Source of the DNA: a virus
Virus genome (UHGV): UHGV-0208284
Strand: one strand, 5' to 3'
Length of the DNA: 12,688 nucleotides
Shown: positions 1 to 12,688 of the stretch, in pieces
Layout: every line of letters starts with the position of its first letter
Position numbering within the stretch: position 1 is the stretch's first letter
Position numbers and translations under genes: made by a program
Notes under the pieces: generated by a model
What the model was told of the DNA's origin: nothing
Seen by the model: only the letters and a program-made list of their open reading frames with translations
Databases searched by the model: none

Positions 1-346
1 GGTTGTCCGGTATTTGCCGGTATGGAATTACCGAAAGGCGCGGTAGTTACTGAGTAACAGGCATTACAGCAGCCCTTCAGTGTGAGGGGCTGCGATAATG
101 CCGGTATTAGAGTGCGTGTAAATGATAATCGCTCCCATTTTCACGGGTCCTTTCCGGAATCTGAAACACCGAGGGACGGCATACGCGCAGAAATCGCCAA
201 ATTTTTGCATTTTCATTCGTCATCATCATCTTGTTAACCGCATGATATTTATTGTTAATTTATTTTTTCTATGTCGAAATTGGTGGTTTTTTATTCATCA
301 ACATAAAGCTCGTCGTGATCTTGGTTTTTTATGTGTCGGGTAAATT
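1..346 (+). other. Candidate packaging-initiation (cos-like) region upstream of the terminase genes
   Basis: Non-coding leader directly 5-prime of the small terminase gene, which is where cos lies in lambda-type phages. It holds three copies of CCGGTAT (7-13, 18-24, 101-107), a 7-bp inverted repeat gcagccc/gggctgc (69-75 and 87-93), and an AT-rich stretch (about 220-345) with two GGTTTTTTAT direct repeats. The only ORF here (122-343) is low-complexity and has no ribosome-binding site. No cohesive-end sequence can be identified from sequence alone. Confidence 0.25.
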
Positions 347-844
347 ATGGATCGTGAACTGAAGAATCTTGCACTCAACATCAGTCAGGTAGCTGCTCTG
401 TCTGGATTGCACCGACAAACGGTATCTGAAAGGTTAAAAAAAATTAAAACCGCTGGTGGGCACGACAAACTTAAGTTGTACAAACTCACTGATATTCTGG
501 CTGAGTTATTGAAGTTGCCACCGCCTGTCGCTGAAGGGGAAATGGATCCTCACGACCGAAAAGCCTGGTATCAGTCAGAACGGGAACGCCTGAAATTCGA
601 ACAGGAAGTCGGAGAATTGATCCCTGCGTCTGATGTCGCCCGTGAATTTGCTGAAATGGCAAAGGCTATGGTGCAGGTTCTGGAAACTCTCCCCGATATT
701 CTTGAACGCGATTGTGCTCTTGAGCCTTCGGCTGTCATGCGGGTGCAAAGCATTATTGATGATCTGCGTGACGAAATTGCGCGGCGGGTGGCGGATGACA
801 GCAAACCGGAAGATGAAGAGGAGGAAAATCAGGAGGACGAATAA
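347..844 (+). CDS. Terminase small subunit (Nu1-like, N-terminal HTH, acidic C-terminal tail)
   Basis: 165-aa ORF immediately upstream of, and overlapping by 1 nt (TAATG), the large terminase. It has an N-terminal helix-turn-helix-like segment (ISQVAALSGLHRQTVSERL) and an acidic C-terminus (PEDEEEENQEDE). Position and architecture are typical of lambda-type small terminases. Confidence 0.7.
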   Translation: MDRELKNLALNISQVAALSGLHRQTVSERLKKIKTAGGHDKLKLYKLTDILAELLKLPPPVAEGEMDPHDRKAWYQSERERLKFEQEVGELIPASDVAREFAEMAKAMVQVLETLPDILERDCALEPSAVMRVQSIIDDLRDEIARRVADDSKPEDEEEENQEDE

Positions 845-2961
845 TGCCTGTGCAGGCGACCGCCAGATCTTTGAAACTGGATACAGGCCAGTTAATTAAA
901 GCGCCGCGCAGAATGCCTGTTGCCGAAGCGGTTCAAAAATTTATGCGAGTCCCTACATCTGGTGGCAACTCTGTTCCGTGGGATCCACTGGTTGCACCGT
1001 ATGTGATTGAACCCATGAACTGCCTGTCGTCCCGTGAGTTTGATGCGGTTGTTTTTGTTGGTCCTGCCCGTACGGGCAAGACTAACGGCCTGATTGATGG
1101 CTGGGTGGTTTATAACATTGTCTGCGATCCGTCTGACTTTTTGCTGGTGCAGATGACGCAGGATAAGGCGCAGGAGCACTCCAAAAAGCGCCTGGCAAGA
1201 ACATTTCGTTGCAGTCCGGAGGTCAGAAAACGCCTCAGCCCACGCCGTAACGATAACAACGTTCATGACAAATATTTTCTGTCAGGTAGCTTTCTGAAAA
1301 TCGGCTGGCCATCCATCAATGTCATGTCATCCTCTGATTTTAAATGTGTGGCGCTGACTGATTACGACCGATTTCCTGAAGATATTGATGGCGAAGGCGA
1401 TGGTTTTTCCCTGGCGTCAAAACGTACCACCACATTTATGTCTGCAGGTATGACGCTGGTGGAGAGTTCGCCCGGGCGTGAGATCACAAACAGTAAGTGG
1501 CGCAGAACATCACCGCATGAGGCGCCGCCCACCACAGGTATCCTTTCTCTGTATAACCGTGGCGATCGTCGTCGCTGGTACTGGCCCTGCCCGGATTGTG
1601 GTGATTATTTTCAGCCATCCATGGAGGCTATGACGGGGTATCGTGACAATCCTGATCCTGTAAAAGCGAGTGAAGCGGCTCATATATTATGCCCTCATTG
1701 TGGCAACCGAATCACCGCGGACATGAAACGTGAACTGAATGGACGCGGTGTGTGGTTGCGTGAGGGTGAGCTGATCGACAGGGAAGGGAATGTTACCGGA
1801 ACACCCCGGCATTCAAGGGTTGCGTCATTCTGGATGGAGGGGCCCGCTGCAGCCTATCAGACCTGGGCACAACTGGTTTACAAACTACTGACAGCTGAGC
1901 AGGAATATGAAGCCACAGGCAGTGAAGAAACACTGAAGGCGGTGATTAATACCGACTGGGGATTACCTTATTTGCCTCGTTCTGCACTGGAGTTGCGCAG
2001 TGCAGATGTGCTGATGCAGCGGGCCGAAGATTACGGTAAACGCCTGGTGCCACCGAAAGTACGTTTTCTTATTGCGGCAGTCGACGTGCAGGGTGGGAAG
2101 AACCGGCGGTTTGTGGTGCAGATTACTGGCTATGGTGAGGACGGCGAACGCTGGCTGGTGGACCGTTATAACATCCGGCATTCATTGCGCTGTGATGAAA
2201 ATGGTGAGGCTCTTCCTGTACATCCCGGCGCTTACCCGGAAGACTGGCAGTTGCTGGTCACCGATGTACTGGAGAAAACATATCCGCTCCAGTCCGATTC
2301 GTCCCGCAGAATGCCTGTGCTGGCAATGGCGGTTGACAGTGGGGGTGAGGACGGTGTGACCGATAACGCCTATAAATTCTGGCGAAAATGTCGTCAGGAT
2401 GGACTGGGCCGACGGATTTTTCTGATAAAGGGTGACAGCACGAAACGCCAGAAAATTATCACCATCACACACCCGGATAATACCGGGCGAAGCGATCGCC
2501 GTGCTGATGCCCAGGGAAAGGTGCCGGTATACCTCCTGCAGACGGATCAGTTGAAAGACCAGCTAAGCAATAACCTGCAGCGTGAATCTCCCGGGCCGGG
2601 GTACATTCATTTTCCTGACTGGATTGGAGAATGGTTTTACGAAGAACTGACCTATGAAGAGCGTGGCGCTGACGGTAAATGGCGTAAGCCAGGCAAAGGG
2701 AATAACGAAGCCTTTGACCTTTTCTGTTATGCCCATGCGGTCGCCATTCTGCGTGGCTATGAAAAAATCCGTGACTGGAGTAACCCTCCCCAGTGGGCAA
2801 GAGGGCAGGATGCTGACGCGGGTGCTTCGGCAGACAAACGCTCTTCCGGTGTGGCGGACAAGAAAAACGTTGCCGGAAGAAATGAGCGGCGAGAAGAAGC
2901 GTCGTCAGAAGCGTTATCCGGAAACTGGTTATCACTACCCCGAAACGGAGGCTGGTTGTGA
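844..2961 (+). CDS. Terminase large subunit (lambda gpA-like)
   Basis: 705-aa ORF with a Walker A P-loop (GPARTGKT, nt about 1060-1083) and two CxxC pairs forming a zinc-ribbon-like motif (CPDCGD ... CPHCGN, nt about 1588-1712). Size and domain order match the gpA family as I recall it; it follows the small subunit and precedes W-like and portal genes. Confidence 0.9.
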   Translation: MPVQATARSLKLDTGQLIKAPRRMPVAEAVQKFMRVPTSGGNSVPWDPLVAPYVIEPMNCLSSREFDAVVFVGPARTGKTNGLIDGWVVYNIVCDPSDFLLVQMTQDKAQEHSKKRLARTFRCSPEVRKRLSPRRNDNNVHDKYFLSGSFLKIGWPSINVMSSSDFKCVALTDYDRFPEDIDGEGDGFSLASKRTTTFMSAGMTLVESSPGREITNSKWRRTSPHEAPPTTGILSLYNRGDRRRWYWPCPDCGDYFQPSMEAMTGYRDNPDPVKASEAAHILCPHCGNRITADMKRELNGRGVWLREGELIDREGNVTGTPRHSRVASFWMEGPAAAYQTWAQLVYKLLTAEQEYEATGSEETLKAVINTDWGLPYLPRSALELRSADVLMQRAEDYGKRLVPPKVRFLIAAVDVQGGKNRRFVVQITGYGEDGERWLVDRYNIRHSLRCDENGEALPVHPGAYPEDWQLLVTDVLEKTYPLQSDSSRRMPVLAMAVDSGGEDGVTDNAYKFWRKCRQDGLGRRIFLIKGDSTKRQKIITITHPDNTGRSDRRADAQGKVPVYLLQTDQLKDQLSNNLQRESPGPGYIHFPDWIGEWFYEELTYEERGADGKWRKPGKGNNEAFDLFCYAHAVAILRGYEKIRDWSNPPQWARGQDADAGASADKRSSGVADKKNVAGRNERREEASSEALSGNWLSLPRNGGWL

Positions 2962-3176
2962 AGAAAGAAGAAGTTTATCAGACGCTGGTCATGGTGCGTC
3001 AGGCTTACCGGGACTCCCTTGATGGTAAAAGCGTTTCCTTTACCGGGGTGAATGGTCGCGCCATTACTAATCATGATCCCGCTGCATTACGTGCAGAACT
3101 TGAATACTGGGAAAAACGCTGGGCGGCAGTCTGCCAGCCCACAAGGAAACCGTACAAACTCGCTCGTTTCTCCTGA
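2958..3176 (+). CDS. Head-tail joining protein (lambda gpW-like)
   Basis: 72-aa ORF starting at GTG 2958, overlapping the terminase stop (GTGA), with a GGAGG ribosome-binding site 6 nt upstream. The pattern D-x3-GK-x-V ... GR ... L ... LE resembles lambda W, and it sits between gpA-like and portal genes as in lambda. Confidence 0.6.
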   Translation: MKKEEVYQTLVMVRQAYRDSLDGKSVSFTGVNGRAITNHDPAALRAELEYWEKRWAAVCQPTRKPYKLARFS

Positions 3177-3184
3177 GGATTTTT

Positions 3185-4696
3185 ATGGGTTTTTTTGATA
3201 AAGCACTTGGCGCAATTGCGCCAGGGTGGGCAGTTTCGCGTGCCAGAAACAAAATGCTGTTGAGGGCTTATGAAGCAGCGCAGCCTTCACGCCTGAATAA
3301 GGCCCGGCGCGAAGTCCGTTCGGCGGATACTGCTGTTTTTGCAGCCGGGACGTCATTACGTGAACAGGCAAGAGCGCTGGATGAAGATCACGATATCGTG
3401 ATTGGTCTGCTGGATAAGCTGGAAGAGCGGGTTATTGGCGCACAGGGGATCCAGGTCGAGCCGCAACCACTGAGAAGCGACGGCACGCTTCATGAGTCAC
3501 TGGCGGAGCAGATATCGTCGCTGTGGTCTGAATGGTCCGTTCGCCCGGAGGTGACGGGGATGTTCACCCGTCCGGAAGCTGAACGGATGGCGCTGCGATC
3601 CGCCTTGCGTGATGGCGAAATGTTTGTACAGCTGGTGCGCGGACCTGTCGCCGGGCTGAATCATTCCACTGTGGTGCCATTATCACTGGAGCTTCTCGAA
3701 GCAGATTTTGTTCCGGTTAATCTGAATACGAATGCAGGGCAACAGATCCGTCAGGGCATAATTCTTAATAACTGGGGGCGGCCTGTAGGATATCGCGTAT
3801 ACAAATATCATCCTGCAAATCTGCGCGGTTTCAGCGCCGAGCTCAAAACTGTTAAGGCGGACAGCATGCTGCATCTGGCGATGCGGAAGCGCCTGCATCA
3901 AGTAAGAGGTGTCAGTCTGTTACATGGCGTGATTCGCCGGATTGCAGATCTGAAAGATTACGAAGAATCAGAGCGAGTGGCTGCCCGTATTGCTGCCGCG
4001 CTTGGCTTCTACATTAAACGCGGTGATGCAGCCAGCTTTCCGACGGATAACGACTGGACACCTCCGGAACAAAAAAACCGATATTTTGATATTTCGCCGG
4101 GCATGATTTTTGACGAACTGGCACCCGGTGAAGATCTGGGAATGGTGGAGTCTAACCGCCCGAATGTTCATCTTTATGAATTCCGTAACGGTCAGTTGCG
4201 GGCTGTGGCTGCCGGAACCCGTGGCAGTTATTCCAGTATTGCCCGTGACTATAACGGCTCCTACAGTTCGCAGCGCCAGGAACTGGTGGAAGGTTACGAA
4301 GGCTACGGTGTTTTACAGCAGTGGTTTGTCGGTCAGTACAGTCGCCCGGTGTACCGGGCATGGCTGGAGCAGGCAAAGCCTTTTCTTGATATTCCCCCTG
4401 ATGTGGATATATCCACGCTTTTCAACGCAACTTATCTTGGCCCGGTGATGCCGTGGATTGATCCGGTGAAGGAGGCTGCAGCATGGCGGGCCATTCTTCG
4501 CGGTGGTGCCGGGACGGAGGCCGAGTGGATACGTGCTCGTGGGCAGTCACCGCAGGAAGTAAAACGCCAGCGACTGCGTGAAACTGAATTTAACCGGGAA
4601 AACGGTTTGGTGTTCGATTCGGATGCCGCTAACGATAAAGGAGTGATTCCTGATGCAGCAAATGACAAGTCCGCGTCTTCGCGGGACGATAATTAA
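3185..4696 (+). CDS. Portal protein (lambda gpB-like, putative)
   Basis: 503-aa ORF located between the W-like gene and the prohead protease, with a GAGGA ribosome-binding site upstream of the ATG. Size fits lambda-family portals. The assignment rests on synteny and size; I do not recognise a diagnostic motif. Confidence 0.65.
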   Translation: MGFFDKALGAIAPGWAVSRARNKMLLRAYEAAQPSRLNKARREVRSADTAVFAAGTSLREQARALDEDHDIVIGLLDKLEERVIGAQGIQVEPQPLRSDGTLHESLAEQISSLWSEWSVRPEVTGMFTRPEAERMALRSALRDGEMFVQLVRGPVAGLNHSTVVPLSLELLEADFVPVNLNTNAGQQIRQGIILNNWGRPVGYRVYKYHPANLRGFSAELKTVKADSMLHLAMRKRLHQVRGVSLLHGVIRRIADLKDYEESERVAARIAAALGFYIKRGDAASFPTDNDWTPPEQKNRYFDISPGMIFDELAPGEDLGMVESNRPNVHLYEFRNGQLRAVAAGTRGSYSSIARDYNGSYSSQRQELVEGYEGYGVLQQWFVGQYSRPVYRAWLEQAKPFLDIPPDVDISTLFNATYLGPVMPWIDPVKEAAAWRAILRGGAGTEAEWIRARGQSPQEVKRQRLRETEFNRENGLVFDSDAANDKGVIPDAANDKSASSRDDN

Positions 4697-6740
4697 TCCC
4701 CGTGCCAGCCTTGCGGGGGTGGATGCCGCTAATGGTCAGTGCTGGTACGAAATCCGGGCACAGACTGCCGGGCGGGTGGAAATTTTTCTTTATGACGTAA
4801 TTGGTGGATGGGGGATTTCAGCACAACAGTTCATCAATGACTGTAAGGAAGCGGGGGTGTTTGAGGCCAGCGCCATTGATTTGCATATTCACAGCCCGGG
4901 CGGCGATGTGATGCAGGGCTTTGCCATCTTTAACACGCTGTCACGCCTGAAAGCAAAGGTGGATATCTGGGTGGATGGTGTTGCTGCCAGCATGGCCTCC
5001 ATGATTGTCTGCCTGCCCGGCGCCACAGTACATATGCCGGAGAATTCCTGGCTGATGATACACAAGCCGTGGGGCGGCGCTTCCGGCGATGCGGATGATA
5101 TGCGTGATTATGCCGACTGGCTGGATCGCAACGAGGCGTTGATGCTGTCAGCCTACATGAATAAAAGCGGACTCGGGCAGGAGGAGCTGGAAGCCATGCT
5201 GAAAGCAGAAACCTGGATGAACGGTGCTGAAGCTGTGGAAAAAGGCTTCGCTGATACGCTTGAACCTGAATTACAGGCTGCGGCCTGTGTGAATCAAAAT
5301 AAACTGAAGGATTACCATAACATGCCAGAACAGATTAACGCGCTTTTTGCTCCGCGTGCAGAAACGACGAACGGACAGCAGCAGGAACCGAAAACAGCCC
5401 CGCAAAATGCACAACAGACAACTGCTCAGCAGGTGCCATCAACCGGAAATGTGGATATCAGCGCAATTGCTTCGCAGGTTCAGCAACAACTGATGGCAGC
5501 CAATGCGGAACGTGTGCAGGCTGTAACTGCAGTATTTGCCTCTTTCCCGTCTTATGCCGACCTGAAAGCGGAGTGTCTGAACGACATGACCTGTACGGAA
5601 GCACAGGCCCGTGAAAAACTGTTGCAGGCGCTGGCAGCCGGAACGACACCAAGTGCAGGTCCGGGAGCCATTCATATTCATGCAGGAAACGGTAATCTGG
5701 TTGGCGATTCCATTCGTGCAGCTGTCATGGCGCGCGCCGGATATGCCGAAGCAGAAAAAGACAATGCCTATAACGGCTTTACACTGCGTGAATTGGCGCG
5801 TGCTTCGCTGGTTGATCGCGGCATCGGTATTTCCGGTCATTCCGCGCCCATGGCGATGGTTGGACTGGCATTCACTCACAGCAACAGCGATTTCGGCAAT
5901 ATCCTGATGGATGTGGCCCATAAAGCCGCGTTGCAGGGCTGGGATGAGGCCAGCGAAAATTTTGACAAGTGGACCCGCAAGGGAACGCTGACCGATTTTA
6001 AAACAGCGCACCGCGTCGGGCTGGAAACTTTCCCGACGCTGCGTCAGGTATTACCGGGCGCTGAATATAAGTATGTAACGCTGAAAGATCGTGGCGAACC
6101 GATTGCACTGGCGACTTATGGCGAATTGTTCAGCATTGATCGCCAGACCATCATCAATGATGACCTGGATATGCTGACCCGTATTCCGATGGCTATGGGG
6201 GCGGCAGCACGCACTACTGTGGGAGATCTGGTCTGGGCTGTGCTGACCAGCAACCCCAAAATGTCGGATGGCAAACCGCTGTTCCATGCAGATCATGGCA
6301 ACCTGGTGACGGCAGATTTGTCTATTGAAGGGCTGGATTCCGGGCGTAAAGCCATGCTGCTCCAGAAATCAGGTGACCGTCGCCTGAACATTCGTCCTGC
6401 TTTTATGCTGACGCCTGTAGCCATTGAGTCGCGAGCTAATCAACTGATTAAGTCTGCCAGTGTGCCTGGTGCAGATGCGAACAGCGGCATTATTAACCCG
6501 ATCCAGAATTTCGTCACAGTTTTGTCAGAAGCCCGTCTTGATGACAACAGTCCGACGGATTATTACCTGGTGGCAGCGCAGGGGCGTGACACGATTGAAG
6601 TGGCTTATCTTGATGGTATTGATACGCCATATCTGGAACAGCAACAGGGCTTTACGATTGATGGCGCAGCCTTCAAGGTGCGCATTGATGCTGGTGTGGC
6701 ACCACTTGACTGGCGAGGTATGGTCAAAGTGAAAAAATAA
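4653..6740 (+). CDS. Prohead protease (ClpP-like, S14) fused to a Gln-rich linker and a C-terminal major capsid domain
   Basis: 695-aa ORF with an AAGGAG ribosome-binding site about 10 nt upstream, overlapping the portal 3-prime end by 44 nt. The N-terminal region of about 200 aa carries ClpP-like Ser and His motifs (GVAASMASM at nt about 4976-5000; MIHKPWGG at nt about 5054-5077). A Gln/Ala-rich low-complexity linker follows (nt about 5290-5650), then about 360 aa that I infer to be the major capsid domain, because no other capsid-sized gene lies between portal and tail genes and a strong terminator follows the gene. Confidence 0.75.
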   Translation: MQQMTSPRLRGTIINPRASLAGVDAANGQCWYEIRAQTAGRVEIFLYDVIGGWGISAQQFINDCKEAGVFEASAIDLHIHSPGGDVMQGFAIFNTLSRLKAKVDIWVDGVAASMASMIVCLPGATVHMPENSWLMIHKPWGGASGDADDMRDYADWLDRNEALMLSAYMNKSGLGQEELEAMLKAETWMNGAEAVEKGFADTLEPELQAAACVNQNKLKDYHNMPEQINALFAPRAETTNGQQQEPKTAPQNAQQTTAQQVPSTGNVDISAIASQVQQQLMAANAERVQAVTAVFASFPSYADLKAECLNDMTCTEAQAREKLLQALAAGTTPSAGPGAIHIHAGNGNLVGDSIRAAVMARAGYAEAEKDNAYNGFTLRELARASLVDRGIGISGHSAPMAMVGLAFTHSNSDFGNILMDVAHKAALQGWDEASENFDKWTRKGTLTDFKTAHRVGLETFPTLRQVLPGAEYKYVTLKDRGEPIALATYGELFSIDRQTIINDDLDMLTRIPMAMGAAARTTVGDLVWAVLTSNPKMSDGKPLFHADHGNLVTADLSIEGLDSGRKAMLLQKSGDRRLNIRPAFMLTPVAIESRANQLIKSASVPGADANSGIINPIQNFVTVLSEARLDDNSPTDYYLVAAQGRDTIEVAYLDGIDTPYLEQQQGFTIDGAAFKVRIDAGVAPLDWRGMVKVKK

Positions 6741-6741
6741 T

Positions 6742-6769
6742 AAAAACCGCCGGACAGGGCGGTTTTTTT
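6742..6769 (+). terminator. Rho-independent terminator downstream of the capsid gene
   Basis: An A-tract, then stem ccgcc (6747-6751), loop ggacag, stem ggcgg (6758-6762), then T7 (6763-6769). The A-tract/T-tract flanks could extend the stem to 9 bp, which would let it act in both directions. It lies 2 nt after the capsid stop codon. Confidence 0.75.
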
Positions 6770-6815
6770 ATGACTGAGGCGGCGTGGCAGGCGCCGCATT
6801 TACCGGAGAGAAAAA

Positions 6816-7145
6816 ATGTCAAAAAATTATGTTCAGGACGGAAAAACCGTTGAGTGGGTGAATGGTACCGGAAAGGCTGTGTTATCAGGCGATCTTGTTG
6901 TTCAGGATAATCTTATCGGCGTTGCGCATGCTGATATTCCTGAAGATGCATCCGGTGTTTTACATACGACAGGTGTGTTTTCTTTGCCTAAAGAAGCGGA
7001 GGCGATGACTCAAGGTAAGCTGGTGTATTTCAAAGCCGATACGGCAACGCTGACGGCAACGAAATCAGGTAATACGCTGGTGGGTACCGTCTGGTGTAAC
7101 GCTGAAACCAGTGATGCCACTGTGTGTGTACGTCTGGGGTACTGA
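6816..7145 (+). CDS. DUF2190-like small head protein (putative decoration/cement protein)
   Basis: 109-aa ORF with a GGAGAG ribosome-binding site. Motifs GVF-LPK, G-x-VYF, NTLVG and a C-terminal V-x-V-x-L resemble the DUF2190 family commonly found next to capsid genes. It does not resemble lambda gpD. Confidence 0.6.
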   Translation: MSKNYVQDGKTVEWVNGTGKAVLSGDLVVQDNLIGVAHADIPEDASGVLHTTGVFSLPKEAEAMTQGKLVYFKADTATLTATKSGNTLVGTVWCNAETSDATVCVRLGY

Positions 7146-7531
7146 TGAACAGGTTCCGACGCCTGCTTACAAACGCGGATGCCCGGGTAACCCGGGCATT
7201 TGCTGAAGAGATACCCGCATATCTGTTCCTCCGGGACGGAGAAAAACGGCCTGTGAGGGTGATATTCGAATCGCCGGATGCGACCGTCGGGATCCGTGAT
7301 GGTGGTGAAATTAATGATCATGCGCCAGCCTTCAGTGTCATGACAGCAGATATTTCCGGATTAATGAAACGTGATCAGGTGGAAATTAATGCTGATATTT
7401 TTCATGTGACACATATTGGCGCTGATGAGGAAGGGCGTACGCGGGTTACCCTCGCGCGGGGAGAACCCGGAAGAAGTACACCTGCTGCCCCTGTCCGACC
7501 GAGTAAACGTTATGGCAGTCAGAGAGCATGA
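7145..7531 (+). CDS. Head-tail attachment protein (lambda gpFII-like)
   Basis: 128-aa ORF starting at ATG 7145, overlapping the upstream stop (TGATG). Segments VRVIFESPDA and PAFSVMTADISGLMKRDQVEINADIFHVTHIGADEEGRTRVTLARG parallel lambda FII (VIRGVFDDPE ... SLFVRTDEVRQLRRGDTLTIG ... WLGRG) as I recall it. Confidence 0.6.
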   Translation: MNRFRRLLTNADARVTRAFAEEIPAYLFLRDGEKRPVRVIFESPDATVGIRDGGEINDHAPAFSVMTADISGLMKRDQVEINADIFHVTHIGADEEGRTRVTLARGEPGRSTPAAPVRPSKRYGSQRA

Positions 7532-8234
7532 ACGAAGCAGTGCCCGGCAGCGACGGCTGGCACGAAACCTCGTCGTTGATATTGATGAAGATGAGGTGCT
7601 GAAAATTATCGCGAAACTGGGTGGTTCAAAAAGTCAGATCCGTAAAGCCTGGGGTGTGGCGCTGAAAAGAGCCGCGTCCGCACTGCGGATGAAGGCCATG
7701 GCAGAGTTTAAAAAACAGGTTGCGCCACGCAGCCAGAAAATGATCAAAAACCGTGTTTTGAATGCTTTTATCATTCGTCGAAATGGCGATGAGTTTGATG
7801 AGGCGAAGGTATGGTTTGGCCTGAACGCCATCAAAGTACGTGATTTGCGCGGACGTATTACCGGTGGAAGGCGTGGTGAACGCCATCAGTTGCGCGATGA
7901 ACGGGGACGTTTTGCACCGGCCACACGCCGAAGACAGGCGAGGGAGATTCGTTTTAAACCTGCCGGGGAGGCAATACCGGTCACTACCTGGTCAGGTGAA
8001 GAGGCTTTCATTAATGAATTTGAGTCTGAAAACCGGAGCGGACGCATTTCACGACGTAAGACGGTACTGGTCCGGCAGGCATCCGGACGACGAAGGGTGC
8101 GCGAAGCAGAAATTGATATTTATGAAGCCATGCTGAACCGTATAGAGGATTTTGTTTTCCCGGATGCGGAAGCGCTGATCCTGAAAAATTTTGAGCATGA
8201 ACTGAAATTCCGGGTATTTAAGGGGCTGGAGTGA
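7512..8234 (+). CDS. Hypothetical Arg/Lys-rich virion morphogenesis protein (possible neck or tail-completion protein)
   Basis: 240-aa ORF from the first in-frame ATG that does not deeply overlap the FII-like gene (20-nt overlap). It is very basic (for example RRGERHQLRDERGRFAPATRRRQAREIRFK) and sits between head-completion and baseplate genes. Family not recognised. The start is uncertain because the ribosome-binding site is weak; the open frame extends back to 7416. Confidence 0.5.
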   Translation: MAVREHERSSARQRRLARNLVVDIDEDEVLKIIAKLGGSKSQIRKAWGVALKRAASALRMKAMAEFKKQVAPRSQKMIKNRVLNAFIIRRNGDEFDEAKVWFGLNAIKVRDLRGRITGGRRGERHQLRDERGRFAPATRRRQAREIRFKPAGEAIPVTTWSGEEAFINEFESENRSGRISRRKTVLVRQASGRRRVREAEIDIYEAMLNRIEDFVFPDAEALILKNFEHELKFRVFKGLE

Positions 8235-8797
8235 TGGAACCATTGATGATGGGAACCTGGCATCGGGCAGTGATTGACAGTCTGAAACAAATTCCCTGGG
8301 TGGAAGATGCCGATGACTACCCGGAAAAAGTGACGCAACTGGTGACGCCTGCCGTGTTTGTGGATGTACCCGGCTGGGACAAGGCTCAGTTTGCCGACGG
8401 GCAGACACGGGTCACGCTGAAATGCGATCTGTTTGTGGTGACTGATCGGGCCGGAAAGACGGAAAACGTGCCAAAACCGCAGATATTTGCCCGCTGTCTG
8501 GCAATGGATTTATCTGACTGGATTGATGGAGCCACGTTCGGGCTGGATAACGTTGACCCGGCGGTTTTTATCGATGCTGAGGTGGATACCTTCGACCGAC
8601 TGCTGGACGACTACATCGTTTTCCGTGTCTCTTTTGAACAGGACATTCCGGTCGGCGAAGATCCGTTTGCAGTTCCGGCAGGTGCGCCGTTACAGGAAGT
8701 CTGGCTGGGTAAAGTACCGGAAACCGGTAAAAAGCATGTGCAGAATTATCGTCTTATCTGGAAAGCGGAGGGCACCGGTGATGAGTCTGGCGGATGA
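8234..8797 (+). CDS. Hypothetical phage structural protein (possible tail-completion or neck protein)
   Basis: 187-aa ORF with ATG overlapping the upstream stop (TGATG) and GGAG 4 nt upstream. It is acidic and lies immediately upstream of baseplate V. Family not recognised. Confidence 0.5.
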   Translation: MEPLMMGTWHRAVIDSLKQIPWVEDADDYPEKVTQLVTPAVFVDVPGWDKAQFADGQTRVTLKCDLFVVTDRAGKTENVPKPQIFARCLAMDLSDWIDGATFGLDNVDPAVFIDAEVDTFDRLLDDYIVFRVSFEQDIPVGEDPFAVPAGAPLQEVWLGKVPETGKKHVQNYRLIWKAEGTGDESGG

Positions 8798-9404
8798 AGT
8801 GGCAGAGTTACGCCGCAGGGTGGCGGATATGGTCCGACGCGGCGTGGTGGAGGAGGTGATCCCGGGTAGCCCGGTGATGGTCCGGGTGGATATCGGGGAT
8901 GTGCTTTCACCGCCGTTGCCCTGGATTCAGGTGCAGTCCGGGCGTTACATGCAGGTCAGTAATTACCCGGCACCCGGAGATGCGGTCACGGTGATATCGG
9001 AGGCAGGTGATCTGCGTAATGGTCGGGTGTATCCGGGGGCCAACATTGACGCGATTCCGGTACCGGCGGGCAGTGAACACGAGCATGTTATTTTGTTTGA
9101 TACCGGAACGGAGATCCGTTACGACCGCCAGGCTAATGCCCTGTCCATCACGCTGGCTGAAGGCGGCAGCTATAAAATCACCGGCAGGGGAACGCTTGAC
9201 GGTCCGGTGGAAATCACGGATACCCTGACTGTGCAGGGAAAAACGAAGATTAATGCCGATACGCAGGTTCTGGGCAATATCGGTGCCTCACAGGAGATCA
9301 CCGACAAAACCGGTAGCATGAGTAAAATCCGCGAAATTTATAATACTCATGATCACCCAGGCGACAGCGGGGGAACCACCCGTAAACCTAACCAGGAAAT
9401 GTGA
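8781..9404 (+). CDS. Baseplate assembly/spike protein (P2 gpV-like)
   Basis: 207-aa ORF with a GGAGGG ribosome-binding site 7 nt upstream of the ATG. The C-terminal motif HDHPGDSGGTT (nt about 9349-9381) matches the conserved C-terminal motif of P2 gpV-family spikes as I recall it, and the size matches. The ORF track extends this frame upstream to 8487, but that part overlaps the previous gene and is probably not translated. Confidence 0.85.
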   Translation: MSLADEVAELRRRVADMVRRGVVEEVIPGSPVMVRVDIGDVLSPPLPWIQVQSGRYMQVSNYPAPGDAVTVISEAGDLRNGRVYPGANIDAIPVPAGSEHEHVILFDTGTEIRYDRQANALSITLAEGGSYKITGRGTLDGPVEITDTLTVQGKTKINADTQVLGNIGASQEITDKTGSMSKIREIYNTHDHPGDSGGTTRKPNQEM

Positions 9405-9405
9405 A

Positions 9406-9427
9406 CGCCGCACCGGCGTTTTTTTTT
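9406..9427 (+). terminator. Weak terminator-like hairpin plus T9 tract between baseplate V and W
   Basis: Stem cgccg (9406-9410), loop cac, stem cggcg (9414-9418), then nine T residues (9419-9427). The 5-bp stem is short, so at most a partial terminator or attenuator. Confidence 0.35.
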
Positions 9428-9439
9428 CGGAAAAATTTC

Positions 9440-9796
9440 ATGATTGGTATTGATTCCGCCACTGGCAGATATCTGCACGGTAACGAACATCTGCGTCAGT
9501 CCGTCACCGATATTTTATCAACACCGGTCGGCAGCCGGGTACTTCTCAGGGAATACGGCAGTAGGTTGTTCAGTCTGCTTGATAACCCGCAGGATGATTT
9601 TACGCGGGTGAGGATTGTCCGTGAAACGGCAACCGCCCTTGAACGCTGGGAACCCCGCCTGACCCTCCGGCGGGTGGAGGTGACGTGGACAGGAGAAGGA
9701 AGCGCCTGGCTGACGCTTGTCGGGGTGAACAACGAAACACAGGAAACGATTCGACTCGAGGAGATAAAAATTGGCAGCATCTCAGGCAATCATTGA
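9440..9796 (+). CDS. Baseplate protein (P2 gpW-like, gp25 family)
   Basis: 118-aa ORF. The motif STPVGSRVLLREYGS and an overall pattern (ALERWEPRLTL ... V) resemble P2 W / T4 gp25-like baseplate wedge proteins. The start is taken as ATG 9440; an alternative GTG at 9401 would overlap the V stop and place the hairpin/T9 inside the coding sequence. Confidence 0.8.
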   Translation: MIGIDSATGRYLHGNEHLRQSVTDILSTPVGSRVLLREYGSRLFSLLDNPQDDFTRVRIVRETATALERWEPRLTLRRVEVTWTGEGSAWLTLVGVNNETQETIRLEEIKIGSISGNH

Positions 9797-10685
9797 TCTG
9801 TCCGCGATACCTGTACCGGATGCGGTGGAGGTGCCGGACACCGCTGTACTGGTCACTCAGATAGTGGCGAAATATCAGGAACTGGACACGTTGTTTTCGG
9901 CCCTGGTGGAATCCGATCCGGCGTATAAATGGGCAGAGGCACTGGCTTTTCGGGTGGCGCTGATGCGCCAGCAGGTCAATGATGCTGTCCGGGCTGTACT
10001 GCTTGCCAGTGCCCGCAGGAACGATCTGGATCAGATTGGTGCGAATTTTCAGGTGCAACGTCTGGTGATTACCCCGGCAGATGACAGCACTATCCCGCCC
10101 ACGCCTGCGGTGTATGAAGATGATGACGCTTTTCGCGAACGTATTCAGTTGTCATGGGCACGACTCAGCACCGCAGGCGCGAGAAACGCATACCACTATT
10201 TTGCACAGAGTGCCGATCCTGATGTGCTGGATGTGAAAGCCTACGGACCGGAAACGCATTCACAGGAAGGGCGTGTTTTTCTTTATGTGTTAGCGCGTAC
10301 AGGAAATGGTACGGCATCACAACCTCTGCTGGATAAGGTGGCGGCGTCAGTCAATGATGATGAAATTCGACCCCTGACGGATTTTGTCAGCGTCCGTGCG
10401 GCAGAAATTATTCCCTACGATGTGGTGGCGGATATCCATATTCCCTACGGGCTGGATGGTGAACTGGTGATGAAAAATGCCCGCCAGGCGCTGCAGACCT
10501 ACACTGACAGTGTGCACCGGATTGGCTCTGTGGCGTCCTGCTCAGGTATGGACGGAGCCCTGCATCAGACGGGGGTGATTACGGTGGCACTGAAATCGCC
10601 GGCCAGTGATATTGTTCCGGCGATGGGGCAGGCTCCATGGTGTCGCTCAGTCACACTGAACAAGGTGGAGACAACCGATGAATGA
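9771..10685 (+). CDS. Baseplate protein (P2 gpJ-like)
   Basis: 304-aa ORF. IIDLSAIPVPDAV near the N-terminus and NDLDQIGANFQVQRLVITPADDSTIPPTPAV (nt about 10020-10113) closely parallel P2 J as I recall it. The apparent start is TTG 9771 with a GAGGAG ribosome-binding site 8 nt upstream; it overlaps the W-like gene by 26 nt. The first in-frame ATG is about 65 codons downstream, beyond the conserved N-terminus. Confidence 0.85.
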   Translation: MAASQAIIDLSAIPVPDAVEVPDTAVLVTQIVAKYQELDTLFSALVESDPAYKWAEALAFRVALMRQQVNDAVRAVLLASARRNDLDQIGANFQVQRLVITPADDSTIPPTPAVYEDDDAFRERIQLSWARLSTAGARNAYHYFAQSADPDVLDVKAYGPETHSQEGRVFLYVLARTGNGTASQPLLDKVAASVNDDEIRPLTDFVSVRAAEIIPYDVVADIHIPYGLDGELVMKNARQALQTYTDSVHRIGSVASCSGMDGALHQTGVITVALKSPASDIVPAMGQAPWCRSVTLNKVETTDE

Positions 10686-12688
10686 CAAAATCAGAAGCAT
10701 ACTACCGGTCAGCGCCACCCGGGCAGAGCGGGTGGTGGACAGTACTGCCGGTGATATGCTGGCGGAAATCGCGGTCTGTCTGATCCGGTATGTCAAAAAT
10801 CCCGATTTATGTCCTGCTGAATTGCTGCCATGGCTGGCCTGGGAAATGTCGGTGGATACCTGGAACGAACACTGGACAGAGGCGGAAAAAAGGGCGGCAA
10901 TAAAGCGTGCTGCCTATATCCATCGTCACAGGGGAACAAAAGCCGCACTGAATGAATCCCTGGCAGACAGTCCGTTCCGGTCGCAGATTGTGGAGTGGTA
11001 TGAGCAGACGCCACCGGGAGATCCCTATACCTTCCGGCTGAATGTGGAGCAGAAGGACCTGCCGGTTCTGATAAACGACCACCAGGATTTGAAACATGCC
11101 GTATTACGGGCAAAAAATCTGCGCAGCTGGTTCAGTGTTCATATTTACGGAAGTAGTCGCGGAAATGGCTTTGGTTATGGTTATGTCACCGCGACGGAAA
11201 AACTGAAAAACAGGATACTGCCGTCAGAAATACAGCTGATACCAGATAATCTGCGACTGATCCCCGGAGAAGAGGTGTCTGTAAAGGTGACGGTGCTTCC
11301 CCTGATTGCAGATGATCGTTCGTTTACGGTACAGATCGAAGATGAAGGCGTGGCGGCAATCAGTATTTCTGGCGATATTATTACTCTGACAGGGAAGCGG
11401 TTTGGTCACACCACTGTAATTGTTTCAACGGTGAATGGTGTGATTGCCAGACTGCCCGTAAATGTTGTGTCTGTTGTTCAGGTTATTGTTCGTGCTGATA
11501 ATGTCAGCAGACCTCTGTTTTTTACAGACGCTCAGGATAATGACTTCACCATTGATTATGGTGATGGAGTGGACTGCAGGGATTATGTCATTGAAGCAGG
11601 TATGGTTAAAACCACCCGGGAATTACCTGTCGGGGAAGAAATTACGCTGACGATTAAAGGTGCTGAAAGTGTGACATTCTACTCATCATCAGCATTAAAC
11701 AGACCCAACCCATTACTGGAGATTATCAGGGTCAGTGGCACCAGAAGATATATGTCGCAGTTTGCAAATTTGCAGAATACATTACGAAAAATTCATGCAG
11801 GTGCTTTTGATAATTTGCCTCGTGCACTTTCATTCTCAGGGGCGTTTCGGGGATGTTCAGCATTAACTGAATTACCTGAAAACCTTTTTGCACAATGTGC
11901 AGAGGTATCTTCATGGAATGAGGTATTTTACGGATGTACTGGTCTGACAGATATTCCGGTTTTATTTGCACCTGAATCAAATGCGCGCACGCTTTCAAAG
12001 TTGTTCTACGGTTGTTCGAAAATAGTCCGGGTTCCGGAGGCGTTGTTTGCAGGTATGGATGACGCCTGGACTTTTGAGTCAGCATTTTACGGATGCAGCA
12101 AGATGGTTAATGCGCCGGCCATTCCCGCACGCAGTCTTCAGAACCTTTACATGACTTTTTCCGGTTGTAGTGAGCTGACTGAGCTTCCTGTGATATGGGG
12201 GAAAGAAAACGAAAGCCATGCGTTATCGATTAATTTGTCTTACGCATTTTACGATTGCCGGTCTCTGACTGTTATTCCTGAAAACTGGCTGGATGTTATC
12301 CGACATCGGATAGCGCATGTCAGAGGGATATTTAATAGGTGCTCCAGCATACGCAGTGTCCCCTCACGATTATTTGCCGGAGCAAATAATCTACGCACTG
12401 CTGACAATGCGTTTAATGACTGCCGCGGTATTACCCGTATCGGAGAGGGGGTGTTTGAGGGATGCCGGAGTCTGAGCGAAATAAACGATGCGTTCAGTTA
12501 CTGCAGTGCGCTTGAGACAACCGGCAACAGGATTTTTGCGGATTGTGTGTCTCTGAGGTCAGTGGCATCTGCGTTTGCCAACAGCGGTATTGTTAATGCC
12601 GGAGAAGAGCTTTTCGCTGGTTGTACATCCCTGACATTAATGGAGTCCGTTTTTGTAAACTGCCGGAAACTGGTTATGTTGCCGGACA
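10678..12688 (+). CDS. Tail protein: P2 gpI-like N-terminal domain fused to an Ig-like (Big_2-type) domain and Cys-containing LRR-like repeats; 3-prime end beyond the window
   Basis: Frame open from ATG 10678 (overlapping the J stop by 8 nt) to the window end, verified codon by codon with no stop. The N-terminal segment NPDLCPAELLPWLAWEMSVDTWNEHWTEAEKRAAIKRAAYIHRHRGT closely matches the P2 gpI N-terminus as I recall it (NPDTCPANLLPWLAWAFSVDRWDEKWPEATKRAVIRDAYFIHCHKGT). Nt about 11221-11470 encode a bacterial Ig-like pattern (VSVKVTVLPLIADDRSFTVQIEDEGVAAISISGDIITLTGKRFGHTTVIVSTVNGVIA). Nt about 11830-12688 encode at least 12 tandem degenerate repeats with consensus F-x-G/D-C-x-S/A-L-T-x-I/L-P-x-x-L-F. 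Confidence 0.85.
   Translation, partial: MNDKIRSILPVSATRAERVVDSTAGDMLAEIAVCLIRYVKNPDLCPAELLPWLAWEMSVDTWNEHWTEAEKRAAIKRAAYIHRHRGTKAALNESLADSPFRSQIVEWYEQTPPGDPYTFRLNVEQKDLPVLINDHQDLKHAVLRAKNLRSWFSVHIYGSSRGNGFGYGYVTATEKLKNRILPSEIQLIPDNLRLIPGEEVSVKVTVLPLIADDRSFTVQIEDEGVAAISISGDIITLTGKRFGHTTVIVSTVNGVIARLPVNVVSVVQVIVRADNVSRPLFFTDAQDNDFTIDYGDGVDCRDYVIEAGMVKTTRELPVGEEITLTIKGAESVTFYSSSALNRPNPLLEIIRVSGTRRYMSQFANLQNTLRKIHAGAFDNLPRALSFSGAFRGCSALTELPENLFAQCAEVSSWNEVFYGCTGLTDIPVLFAPESNARTLSKLFYGCSKIVRVPEALFAGMDDAWTFESAFYGCSKMVNAPAIPARSLQNLYMTFSGCSELTELPVIWGKENESHALSINLSYAFYDCRSLTVIPENWLDVIRHRIAHVRGIFNRCSSIRSVPSRLFAGANNLRTADNAFNDCRGITRIGEGVFEGCRSLSEINDAFSYCSALETTGNRIFADCVSLRSVASAFANSGIVNAGEELFAGCTSLTLMESVFVNCRKLVMLPD
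11830..12688 (+). repeat. Tandem degenerate coding repeats (F-x-G-C ... L-T-x-IP ... LF units) within the gpI-like fusion gene
   Basis: The protein-level period is about 23-28 residues in the first half and about 13-14 residues toward the window end. At nucleotide level the motif attttacggatg recurs (11927-11938, 12080-12091) with a near copy at 12245-12256. GC content is about 32-48 percent per 60-nt line here, against mid-50s in the head genes. Confidence 0.6.

Follow-up and report, generated by a model that had tools for sequence, protein, structure and literature searches.

An Ig-like and leucine-rich-repeat extension, putatively an auxiliary adhesin, on the gpI-type baseplate wedge protein of a prophage

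Mosaic tail genes with a compositional signature are textbook material, and such exchange is the usual route by which phages alter adhesion. For phage P2, a 2026 cryo-electron microscopy preprint describes a baseplate in which each of the six wedges is made up of two gpJ subunits and a single gpI, and in which the C-terminal part of gpI, from R153 onward, serves as a flexible tether and pairs with the adaptor at the N-terminus of the gpH fibre. We analysed a 12,688-nucleotide (nt) stretch of the virus genome UHGV-0208284 (hereafter the window), which is the late operon of a prophage with every gene on the plus strand and most of them named by Pfam. Its last open reading frame (ORF) begins as a gpI-like wedge protein and continues for hundreds of codons more. 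We think it likely that this protein is a gpI wedge bearing a mobile, allelic cassette of immunoglobulin (Ig)-like, PKD-like and leucine-rich-repeat (LRR) domains, whose role would be that of an auxiliary adhesin, with receptor binding still left mainly to the gpH-like fibre. Observed here, and carrying this reading, are a compositional shift, breakpoints, allelic diversity, the domain architecture and a separate fibre gene.

Architecture of the long gpI-like protein

The gpI-like ORF starts with an ATG at 10678, overlaps the gpJ-like gene by 8 nt and stays open through 12688, leaving 670 codons visible. As a full-length model protein we used P0001, an Escherichia coli protein of 802 residues (44 member sequences) that is 96% identical over residues 176-670. 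With a visible part of at least 670 residues and a full length of 802, the protein is far outside the canonical size: among the matches listed in a search with the core only, nearly all gpI homologues have 176-235 residues, and the few that depart from this are partial entries. The parts of the ORF are as follows, where GC is the guanine-plus-cytosine fraction and GC3 the same fraction at third codon positions.

10678..11150, plus strand: gpI core, codons 1-158, Pfam Tail_P2_I; GC 0.53, GC3 0.59
11151..11202, plus strand: breakpoint zone and fibre-tether segment, codons 159-175, SSRGNGFGYGYVTATEK; homology ends here
11203..11463, plus strand: first Ig-like domain (Big_2), codons 176-262; GC 0.48
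11464..11727, plus strand: second beta-sandwich (PKD-like), codons 263-350; GC 0.42, GC3 0.37
11728..12688, plus strand: BspA/DUF285-type LRR solenoid, codons 351-670, Pfam LRR_5; cut by the window end

The core scores 124.7 bits against Pfam PF09684 (Tail_P2_I; cutoff 20.6) over residues 9-149, covering the full profile, and residues 13-128 match the pyocin triplex subunit Tri2, PA0619 (PDB 6u5b), with an E-value of 4.6e-18. Its nt identity to relatives is 93-99%, regardless of whether their gpI is short or long. By homology, then, codons 1-158 encode a baseplate wedge (triplex) protein of the P2 gpI/pyocin Tri2 type. The gene order of the P2 gpI class, V-W-J-I followed by fibre H and chaperone G, is kept; W and J were identified by Pfam in the window, V by the annotation of relatives, and the fibre and chaperone genes from two E. 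coli assemblies, L005 and L006, described below.

Beyond the tether segment, the Big_2 domain is followed by a sandwich with the invariant motif FT-I-DYGDG, in which T291, D293, Y294, G295, D296 and G297 do not vary in alignment A1. The model of this domain is all-beta, with a predicted local distance difference test score (pLDDT) of about 85-93, and a homologous segment in a protein from a Clostridium metagenome-assembled genome (MAG) matches Pfam PKD_4. The LRR part, which in the full-length homologue extends for about 132 further codons past the window end, comprises about 17 leucine-rich repeats built from 13-14-residue FxGCxxL half-units and closed by conserved N- and C-caps. Pfam LRR_5 scores 50.3 bits for the window protein and 64.5 bits for P0001 (cutoff 27.7).

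AlphaFold2 gives pLDDT values of 80-97 over residues 180-802 and of 90-97 in the repeats. Foldseek matches the model to 4gt6, a Faecalibacterium cell-surface LRR protein (E-value 4e-6, probability 1.0), and sequence matches in the PDB for the LRR part are 4gt6, 4fs7 and TpLRR. Template modelling (TM) scores for the whole model are low (0.1-0.2), because it contains several domains together with a poorly predicted core; residues 176-365 were therefore modelled separately. Pfam-type domain searches detected no fibre, collar or beta-helix domain in the extension, such domains being found in a separate downstream gene. In PHROGs the whole protein falls into phrog_9915, "unknown function". An adhesin or ligand-binding activity of the LRR part is thus a prediction from its repeat family.

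Breakpoints, alleles and composition of the extension

Alignment with related prophages places a breakpoint inside the ORF. Over 121-11151 the prophage of E. coli A19, an isolate from a vampire bat, aligns colinearly with the window and shares 95.5% nt identity; beyond that there is no nt homology. Its gpI has the domain architecture seen in the window, with amino acid identities of 37% in Big_2, 49% in the middle domain and 30-44% in the LRR part, a degree of variability and mosaicism relative to a 95.5% backbone that is characteristic of receptor-binding proteins. The assemblies L005 and L006 show the reverse pattern: they are 97-98% identical to the window at the nt level from 7446 to its end, the whole extension included, and the head module upstream is another one, of lambda-like type, with S49 protease, gpD-like decoration protein, gpE-like capsid and FI. 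In most E. coli relatives the match stops after the first 473-525 nt of the ORF; they encode a gpI of 193-196 residues that has no extension and ends 17-20 residues beyond the shared ...GYGYV(T/M)ATEK; identity to these relatives falls from about 95% to random at 11150-11200. Homology ends at 11150/11151 for A19 and A10 and at 11202 for most of the short-gpI relatives. This recurrent breakpoint, at codon 158, lies about where the tether of P2 gpI starts, as judged by residue number, not by alignment. Two alleles are intermediate: nt identity decays from 88% to about 70% in that of M8 (803 residues) and goes down to about 55% in that of 401651 (861 residues).

At the 5' end of the tail-fibre gene homology resumes in every relative compared, and the N-terminal 110 residues of the fibre are conserved with a long or a short gpI. 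The module therefore sits between conserved flanks; missing from most relatives and represented by divergent alleles between those flanks, it is a presence/absence cassette of about 1.9-2.1 kb. Abrupt loss of homology, a composition that the encoded protein does not account for and occurrence on different backbones with conserved flanks mark it as a horizontally exchanged mosaic module. The module is rare: nt-detectable homologues of the window allele are present in only 4 of 5426 complete E. coli genomes, a count that divergent alleles such as that of A19 escape. Across alleles the protein ranges from 614 to 1009 residues, the differences lying in blocks of LRRs; conservation is higher in the caps and in both Ig-like domains, and the central LRRs are highly variable. 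This pattern fits a diversifying binding surface without proving one.

An earlier sequence-only reading had proposed the recombinational replacement of a receptor-binding domain. The check that it suggested, alignment with related prophages, bears out a breakpoint and an exchange, with different C-terminal modules on one gpI backbone. The idea of replacement is not, since canonical gpI (about 176-200 residues) has no receptor-binding domain and most relatives are without the module; what we find is an add-on with divergent alleles. The same reading spoke of a repeat region, which is correct for the protein. At the DNA level, Tandem Repeats Finder found no repeat array in the region, so replication slippage is ruled out as the origin of the repeats.

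A diversity-generating retroelement was considered and dropped: in L005 and L006, genes called up to 10 kb away in both directions include no reverse-transcriptase family, and DNA repeats are lacking in the region; the search for a template repeat was not taken further.

In A19 the long gpI is split into an ORF of 855 residues that does not contain the conserved C-terminal cap and an ORF of 178 residues that begins 38 nt later (L009 19925-23067). The smaller ORF is 43-54% identical to residues of about 626-801, the cap, of other alleles. We had considered it a leftover of an older allele or a recombination scar and abandoned that idea; as it aligns to the cap missing from the 855-residue ORF, it is more simply the 3' end of one gene interrupted by a frameshift or stop. 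The split probably reflects a frameshift, a stop or an error in sequencing, within a gene of about 1040 codons.

GC was scanned in sliding windows of 300 nt, with 601-11100 as the backbone reference. Over the backbone the mean is 0.533 (standard deviation 0.029, minimum 0.46); in windows covering 11401-12000 it is 0.42-0.43, which corresponds to z values of -3.6 to -4.0. Codon usage shifts in the same place: GC3 is 0.533±0.039 in 190-codon blocks of backbone genes and about 0.33 in the trough (z -5.2), and within the last ORF it goes from 0.57 in codons 1-175 to 0.30-0.37 in codons 261-450.

11401..12100: GC trough, GC 0.42-0.45, GC3 about 0.33

The lowest values span the second Ig-like domain and the first leucine-rich repeats. 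GC is 0.41 over the first 100 codons of the LRR part and 0.49 thereafter, with a partial recovery to 0.49-0.51 past about 12030-12300. The sequence-only reading had counted 32-48% GC in 60-nt lines of 11700-11940, placed the upstream genes in the mid-50s and located the change within one ORF, past the gpI-like part. All of this is reproduced: the lines at 11740, 11800, 11860 and 11920 have GC of 0.33, 0.48, 0.37 and 0.40, the genes upstream of the last ORF have 0.53-0.55, and the change comes just after the conserved core. The drop was real, but its proposed start at 11440 was too far downstream; GC declines as a ramp, not a step, with an onset near 11100-11200, a maximum-likelihood change point at 11066 and the homology breakpoint at 11151.

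The shift lies mainly at synonymous sites and is not explained by amino acid content: GC3 falls, and the identical amino acids encoded with backbone codon usage would give a GC of 0.499, against 0.418 observed. The GC of the whole extension differs among alleles (window 0.46, M8 0.44, 401651 0.50, A19 0.53); the backbones have 0.54. In Klebsiella carriers of the module the extension goes down to 0.46-0.53 on a backbone of 0.59-0.60, and in an E217-like phage the polarity is reversed, with extension GC above core GC. The compositions of core and extension are uncoupled, as expected for parts with separate histories.

The module has a wide distribution. Its architecture occurs in proteins of E. 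albertii and Salmonella, in Klebsiella phage ST16-OXA48phi5.4 (gp35, 1008 residues) and in prophages of K. spallanzanii and K. michiganensis. A search of 50,697 deposited phages with Megablast gave no match to the ORF; only tblastn recovered the Klebsiella phage homologues. The unit of Big_2, middle domain and LRRs is also fused to DUF2612 wedge proteins (P0017, P0244 and P0250). In the one DUF2612 locus that we read, which belongs to an E217/Pam3-like myophage, the gene lies between a Baseplate_J gene and a Collar fibre gene. The LRR superfamily as a whole is large, with 16,868 cluster representatives at E ≤ 0.001 in a whole-library HMMER search.

Possible roles of the extension

Taken together, these observations suggest the following arrangement. 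The short fibre tether of gpI is prolonged by some 625 residues of adhesin-like module (Big_2, the PKD-like sandwich and about 17 LRRs), encoded by a mobile cassette of about 1.9 kb that is gained, lost or swapped through recombination in the flanks formed by the gpI core and the 5' end of the fibre gene. The window allele has had a history unlike that of the backbone, which accounts for its lower GC and GC3. The long gpI would keep its tether, as the conservation of the GYGYVTATEK segment and of the fibre adaptor suggests, and then run outward as an Ig-like stalk bearing an LRR binding surface. With one gpI per wedge, six copies of the extension would stand at the baseplate rim beside the six tail fibres. 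In that place they could modulate adsorption or host range, either as an auxiliary adhesin or as a second device for receptor binding, with the gpH-like fibre staying the main one. The host-range cassette of the sequence-only reading is, on domain content (Ig-like plus LRR) and position, a reasonable prediction. In L005 and L006 a tail-collar fibre gene (Phage_tail_fib) and a Caudo_TAP chaperone gene directly follow the same gpI allele, and because both are retained with it the extension is best seen as auxiliary and not as the primary receptor-binding protein.

Several results weigh against this reading. A scan of contigs for a donor returned only Klebsiella prophages and surface proteins of Clostridia MAGs, at 27-33% identity; the best non-enterobacterial relatives do not exceed 33%, and no near-relative of low GC was found among them. 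Between the window and L005 the ratio of nonsynonymous to synonymous substitution rates (dN/dS) is 0.44 in the LRR part and 1.5 in Big_2 (10 substitutions), from few changes and with no positive selection shown. AlphaFold2 modelled the gpI core poorly and with low confidence, as would be expected of a subunit that folds within the wedge. Finally, the split gene of A19 may mean that some copies are decaying, which would fit a dispensable accessory.

Among the alternatives, we regard as unlikely, though conceivable, that the extension is a second recognition device in a fuller sense, either a dual-receptor binding protein or a BspA-like adhesin for mucus or animal ligands, which would derive from surface proteins of gut anaerobes and would have moved as a plug-in cassette among the baseplates of unrelated myophages with Tail_P2_I and DUF2612 wedges. 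More distantly, the LRR part is related to surface proteins from gut metagenomes and uncultured Clostridia with BACON, Mfa-like, PKD and DUF285 domains, and one Clostridium MAG relative with PKD and LRR domains lies in a plainly chromosomal context.

Another reading, in which the extended gpI is itself the primary receptor-binding protein, was swapped as such and alone sets host range, can draw on the distal position in the baseplate, the hypervariable mosaic and the LRR and Ig-like binding folds. We consider it improbable: in prophages with the same allele a complete tail-collar fibre of 525 residues and its Caudo_TAP chaperone are encoded immediately downstream, the N-terminal adaptor of the fibre is conserved for short and long gpI alike, most relatives function with a gpI of 193 residues, and the extension has none of the fibre, collar or beta-helix domains.

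About equally doubtful is that the extension binds a non-bacterial ligand, such as gut mucus or animal-cell molecules, and holds virions in the mucosal niche. BspA-type LRR proteins of oral and gut bacteria bind host matrix proteins, and Ig-like domains on phage capsids are the subject of a proposed mucus-adherence model. Outside phages, the nearest relatives are the gut-anaerobe surface proteins mentioned above, the best structural match is the Faecalibacterium cell-surface protein, and carriers were isolated from the gut (mouse, bat and human stool). A gut origin, however, is expected of any E. coli prophage, and a position at the baseplate rim beside the fibres favours contact with the bacterial surface, the binding being putative in either case.

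The split A19 copy (855 and 178 residues) and the absence of the module in most relatives could be taken to mean that the extension now has no function and persists as a decaying or neutral passenger. This is very unlikely given an ORF that runs open for 670 codons here and for 802 in P0001, an architecture and caps that Escherichia, Salmonella, Klebsiella and an unrelated myophage share at 30-50% identity, a very confident predicted fold, and dN/dS below 1 in the LRR part and the middle domain.

The least probable alternative, that the GC drop is a by-product of the amino acid or structural needs of Ig and LRR domains and has no bearing on horizontal origin, agrees with the richness of LRR proteins in Leu, Phe, Asn and Ile and with the fall in GC at first codon positions from 0.57 to 0.45-0.53 in the extension, but is largely refuted by a shift that lies mainly in GC3 (0.33 vs 0.53), by backbone codons that predict a GC of 0.50 and not 0.42, and by the 401651 allele at 0.50 and the A19 allele, of the same architecture, at 0.52-0.59, which is normal.

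Surrounding genes and comparison with known systems

Upstream of the gpI-like gene, the window contains the following genes of the late operon, in which a P2-type baseplate block comes after the head-tail attachment gene.

347-844, plus strand: DUF1441 protein (Pfam)
844-2961, plus strand: gpA-type large terminase (Pfam)
3185-4696, plus strand: lambda-family portal (Pfam)
4653-6740, plus strand: ClpP-protease/major-capsid fusion, 695 residues (Pfam)
6816-7145, plus strand: cement protein (Pfam)
7124-7531, plus strand: head-tail attachment protein (Pfam)
about 8781-9404, plus strand: baseplate assembly protein V-like spike gene (NCBI annotation of colinear relatives)
9401-9796, plus strand: gp25/W (Pfam)
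9771..10685, plus strand: gpJ-like baseplate wedge gene (Pfam Baseplate_J, 82.6 bits; 92-99% nt identity to relatives)

In the interval from the head-tail attachment gene to gp25/W, three proteins are without a Pfam match. The third is the one annotated as V in relatives, and this V-like spike protein has no Pfam match in the window, L005 or L006. The long TTG-initiated ORFs listed for this interval, 7416-8234 and 8487-9404, overlap neighbouring genes; from the gene sizes of 723 and 624 nt in relatives, the true starts are probably near 7512 and 8781.

Other mosaic features were seen in the head and tail genes. A second junction lies at 7446, inside the head-tail attachment gene, from which point on the homology to L005 and L006 begins; A19 has the head type of the window (ClpP-protease/capsid fusion and cement protein), unlike the lambda-like heads of those two assemblies. 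At its C-terminal end, the spike tip (9246-9404), the V spike protein occurs in two alleles over about 55 residues, one in the window, L002 and L006 and the other in L001 and L003. Nt identity between them is 0.57, against more than 0.9 in the flanks, which makes this a small swapped patch. The left end of the window (1-450) is likewise GC-poor, at 0.37-0.43; it includes an ORF of 73 codons at 122-343 (GC 0.38, no Pfam match) upstream of the DUF1441 gene, and A19 has about 250 additional bases between window positions 105 and 121.

Downstream, the fibre gene is intact in L006 (525 residues; 12422-13999) and broken into 93 and 433 residues in L005 (Logan assembly; 12422-13998). In E. coli M8, from a mouse (L001 10461-13049), an inserted IS66 element (tnpA, tnpB, tnpC) separates the fibre-assembly gene from the sheath gene, so that the tail operon of M8 is interrupted. 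A small ORF of 70-76 codons with no Pfam family lies between the LRR wedge gene and the fibre gene in two other carriers (L007 10487-10699 and L008 10440-10670). It is 50% identical between a P2-like Klebsiella phage and an unrelated E217-like myophage, and the E. coli prophages do not have it; it may accompany the module as a helper.

The phenomenon itself is ordinary phage mosaicism and is expected. The sequences are already public under the annotation "phage tail protein I"; literature searches found no description or test of an LRR-bearing gpI, and the variant appears to be uncharacterised. Less familiar are the attachment site, where gpI, normally a mere fibre tether, would be the docking point for a large putative LRR adhesin, and the recurrence of the same module on a second wedge family, DUF2612. 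If the extension does bind receptors, it would offer a swappable handle, flanked on both sides by conserved sequence, for retargeting P2-like phages and R-type tailocins, and it would need to be included in prophage host-range prediction for E. coli, Salmonella and Klebsiella.

Compared with described systems, the first 158 residues of the window protein resemble the wedge proteins of the P2 gpI, pyocin Tri2 (PA0619) and Mu gp48 type, within the same gene order V-W-J-I-H-G. Canonical Tail_P2_I members, of 176-235 residues, end after the tether, whereas the window protein has about 625 more. A counterpart of the same architecture is gp35 of ST16-OXA48phi5.4 (Peduoviridae, Reipivirus), in which Tail_P2_I is likewise joined to Big_2, the middle domain and LRR_5/DUF285 and followed by a tail-collar fibre, with a GC dip as well. 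This gp35 and the Klebsiella prophage genes are only 33-34% identical to the window protein over the extension and are longer (1008-1009 residues), and these carriers have a true P2-type head and tail genome with a conserved 70-residue ORF between gpI and the fibre, absent from the E. coli prophages.

With BspA/DUF285 LRR surface proteins (LRR_5; 4gt6, 4fs7 and TpLRR, 6mlx) the module shares the FxGCxxL repeat type and the predicted solenoid, and the pairing of PKD with LRR is common to it and the chromosomal Clostridium MAG protein. Those proteins are cellular and have signal peptides or anchors, whereas here the module is on a virion baseplate subunit, at an identity of at most 33%. The C-terminal domain of lambda gpV is an accessory Big_2 domain on the tail tube; in the window protein Big_2 would be only the stalk of a larger LRR extension, on a wedge protein. 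In a preprint on phage Goslar, LRR domains are predicted in some DUF7941 proteins, which are modelled as a host-recognition fibre cloud. The DUF2612 wedge proteins P0017, P0244 and P0250 share the C-terminal module, with 33% identity across 77% of the query, in the same gene position, but on a different N-terminal Pfam family, with extra copies of Big_2 and with the opposite GC polarity, the extension being richer in GC than the core.

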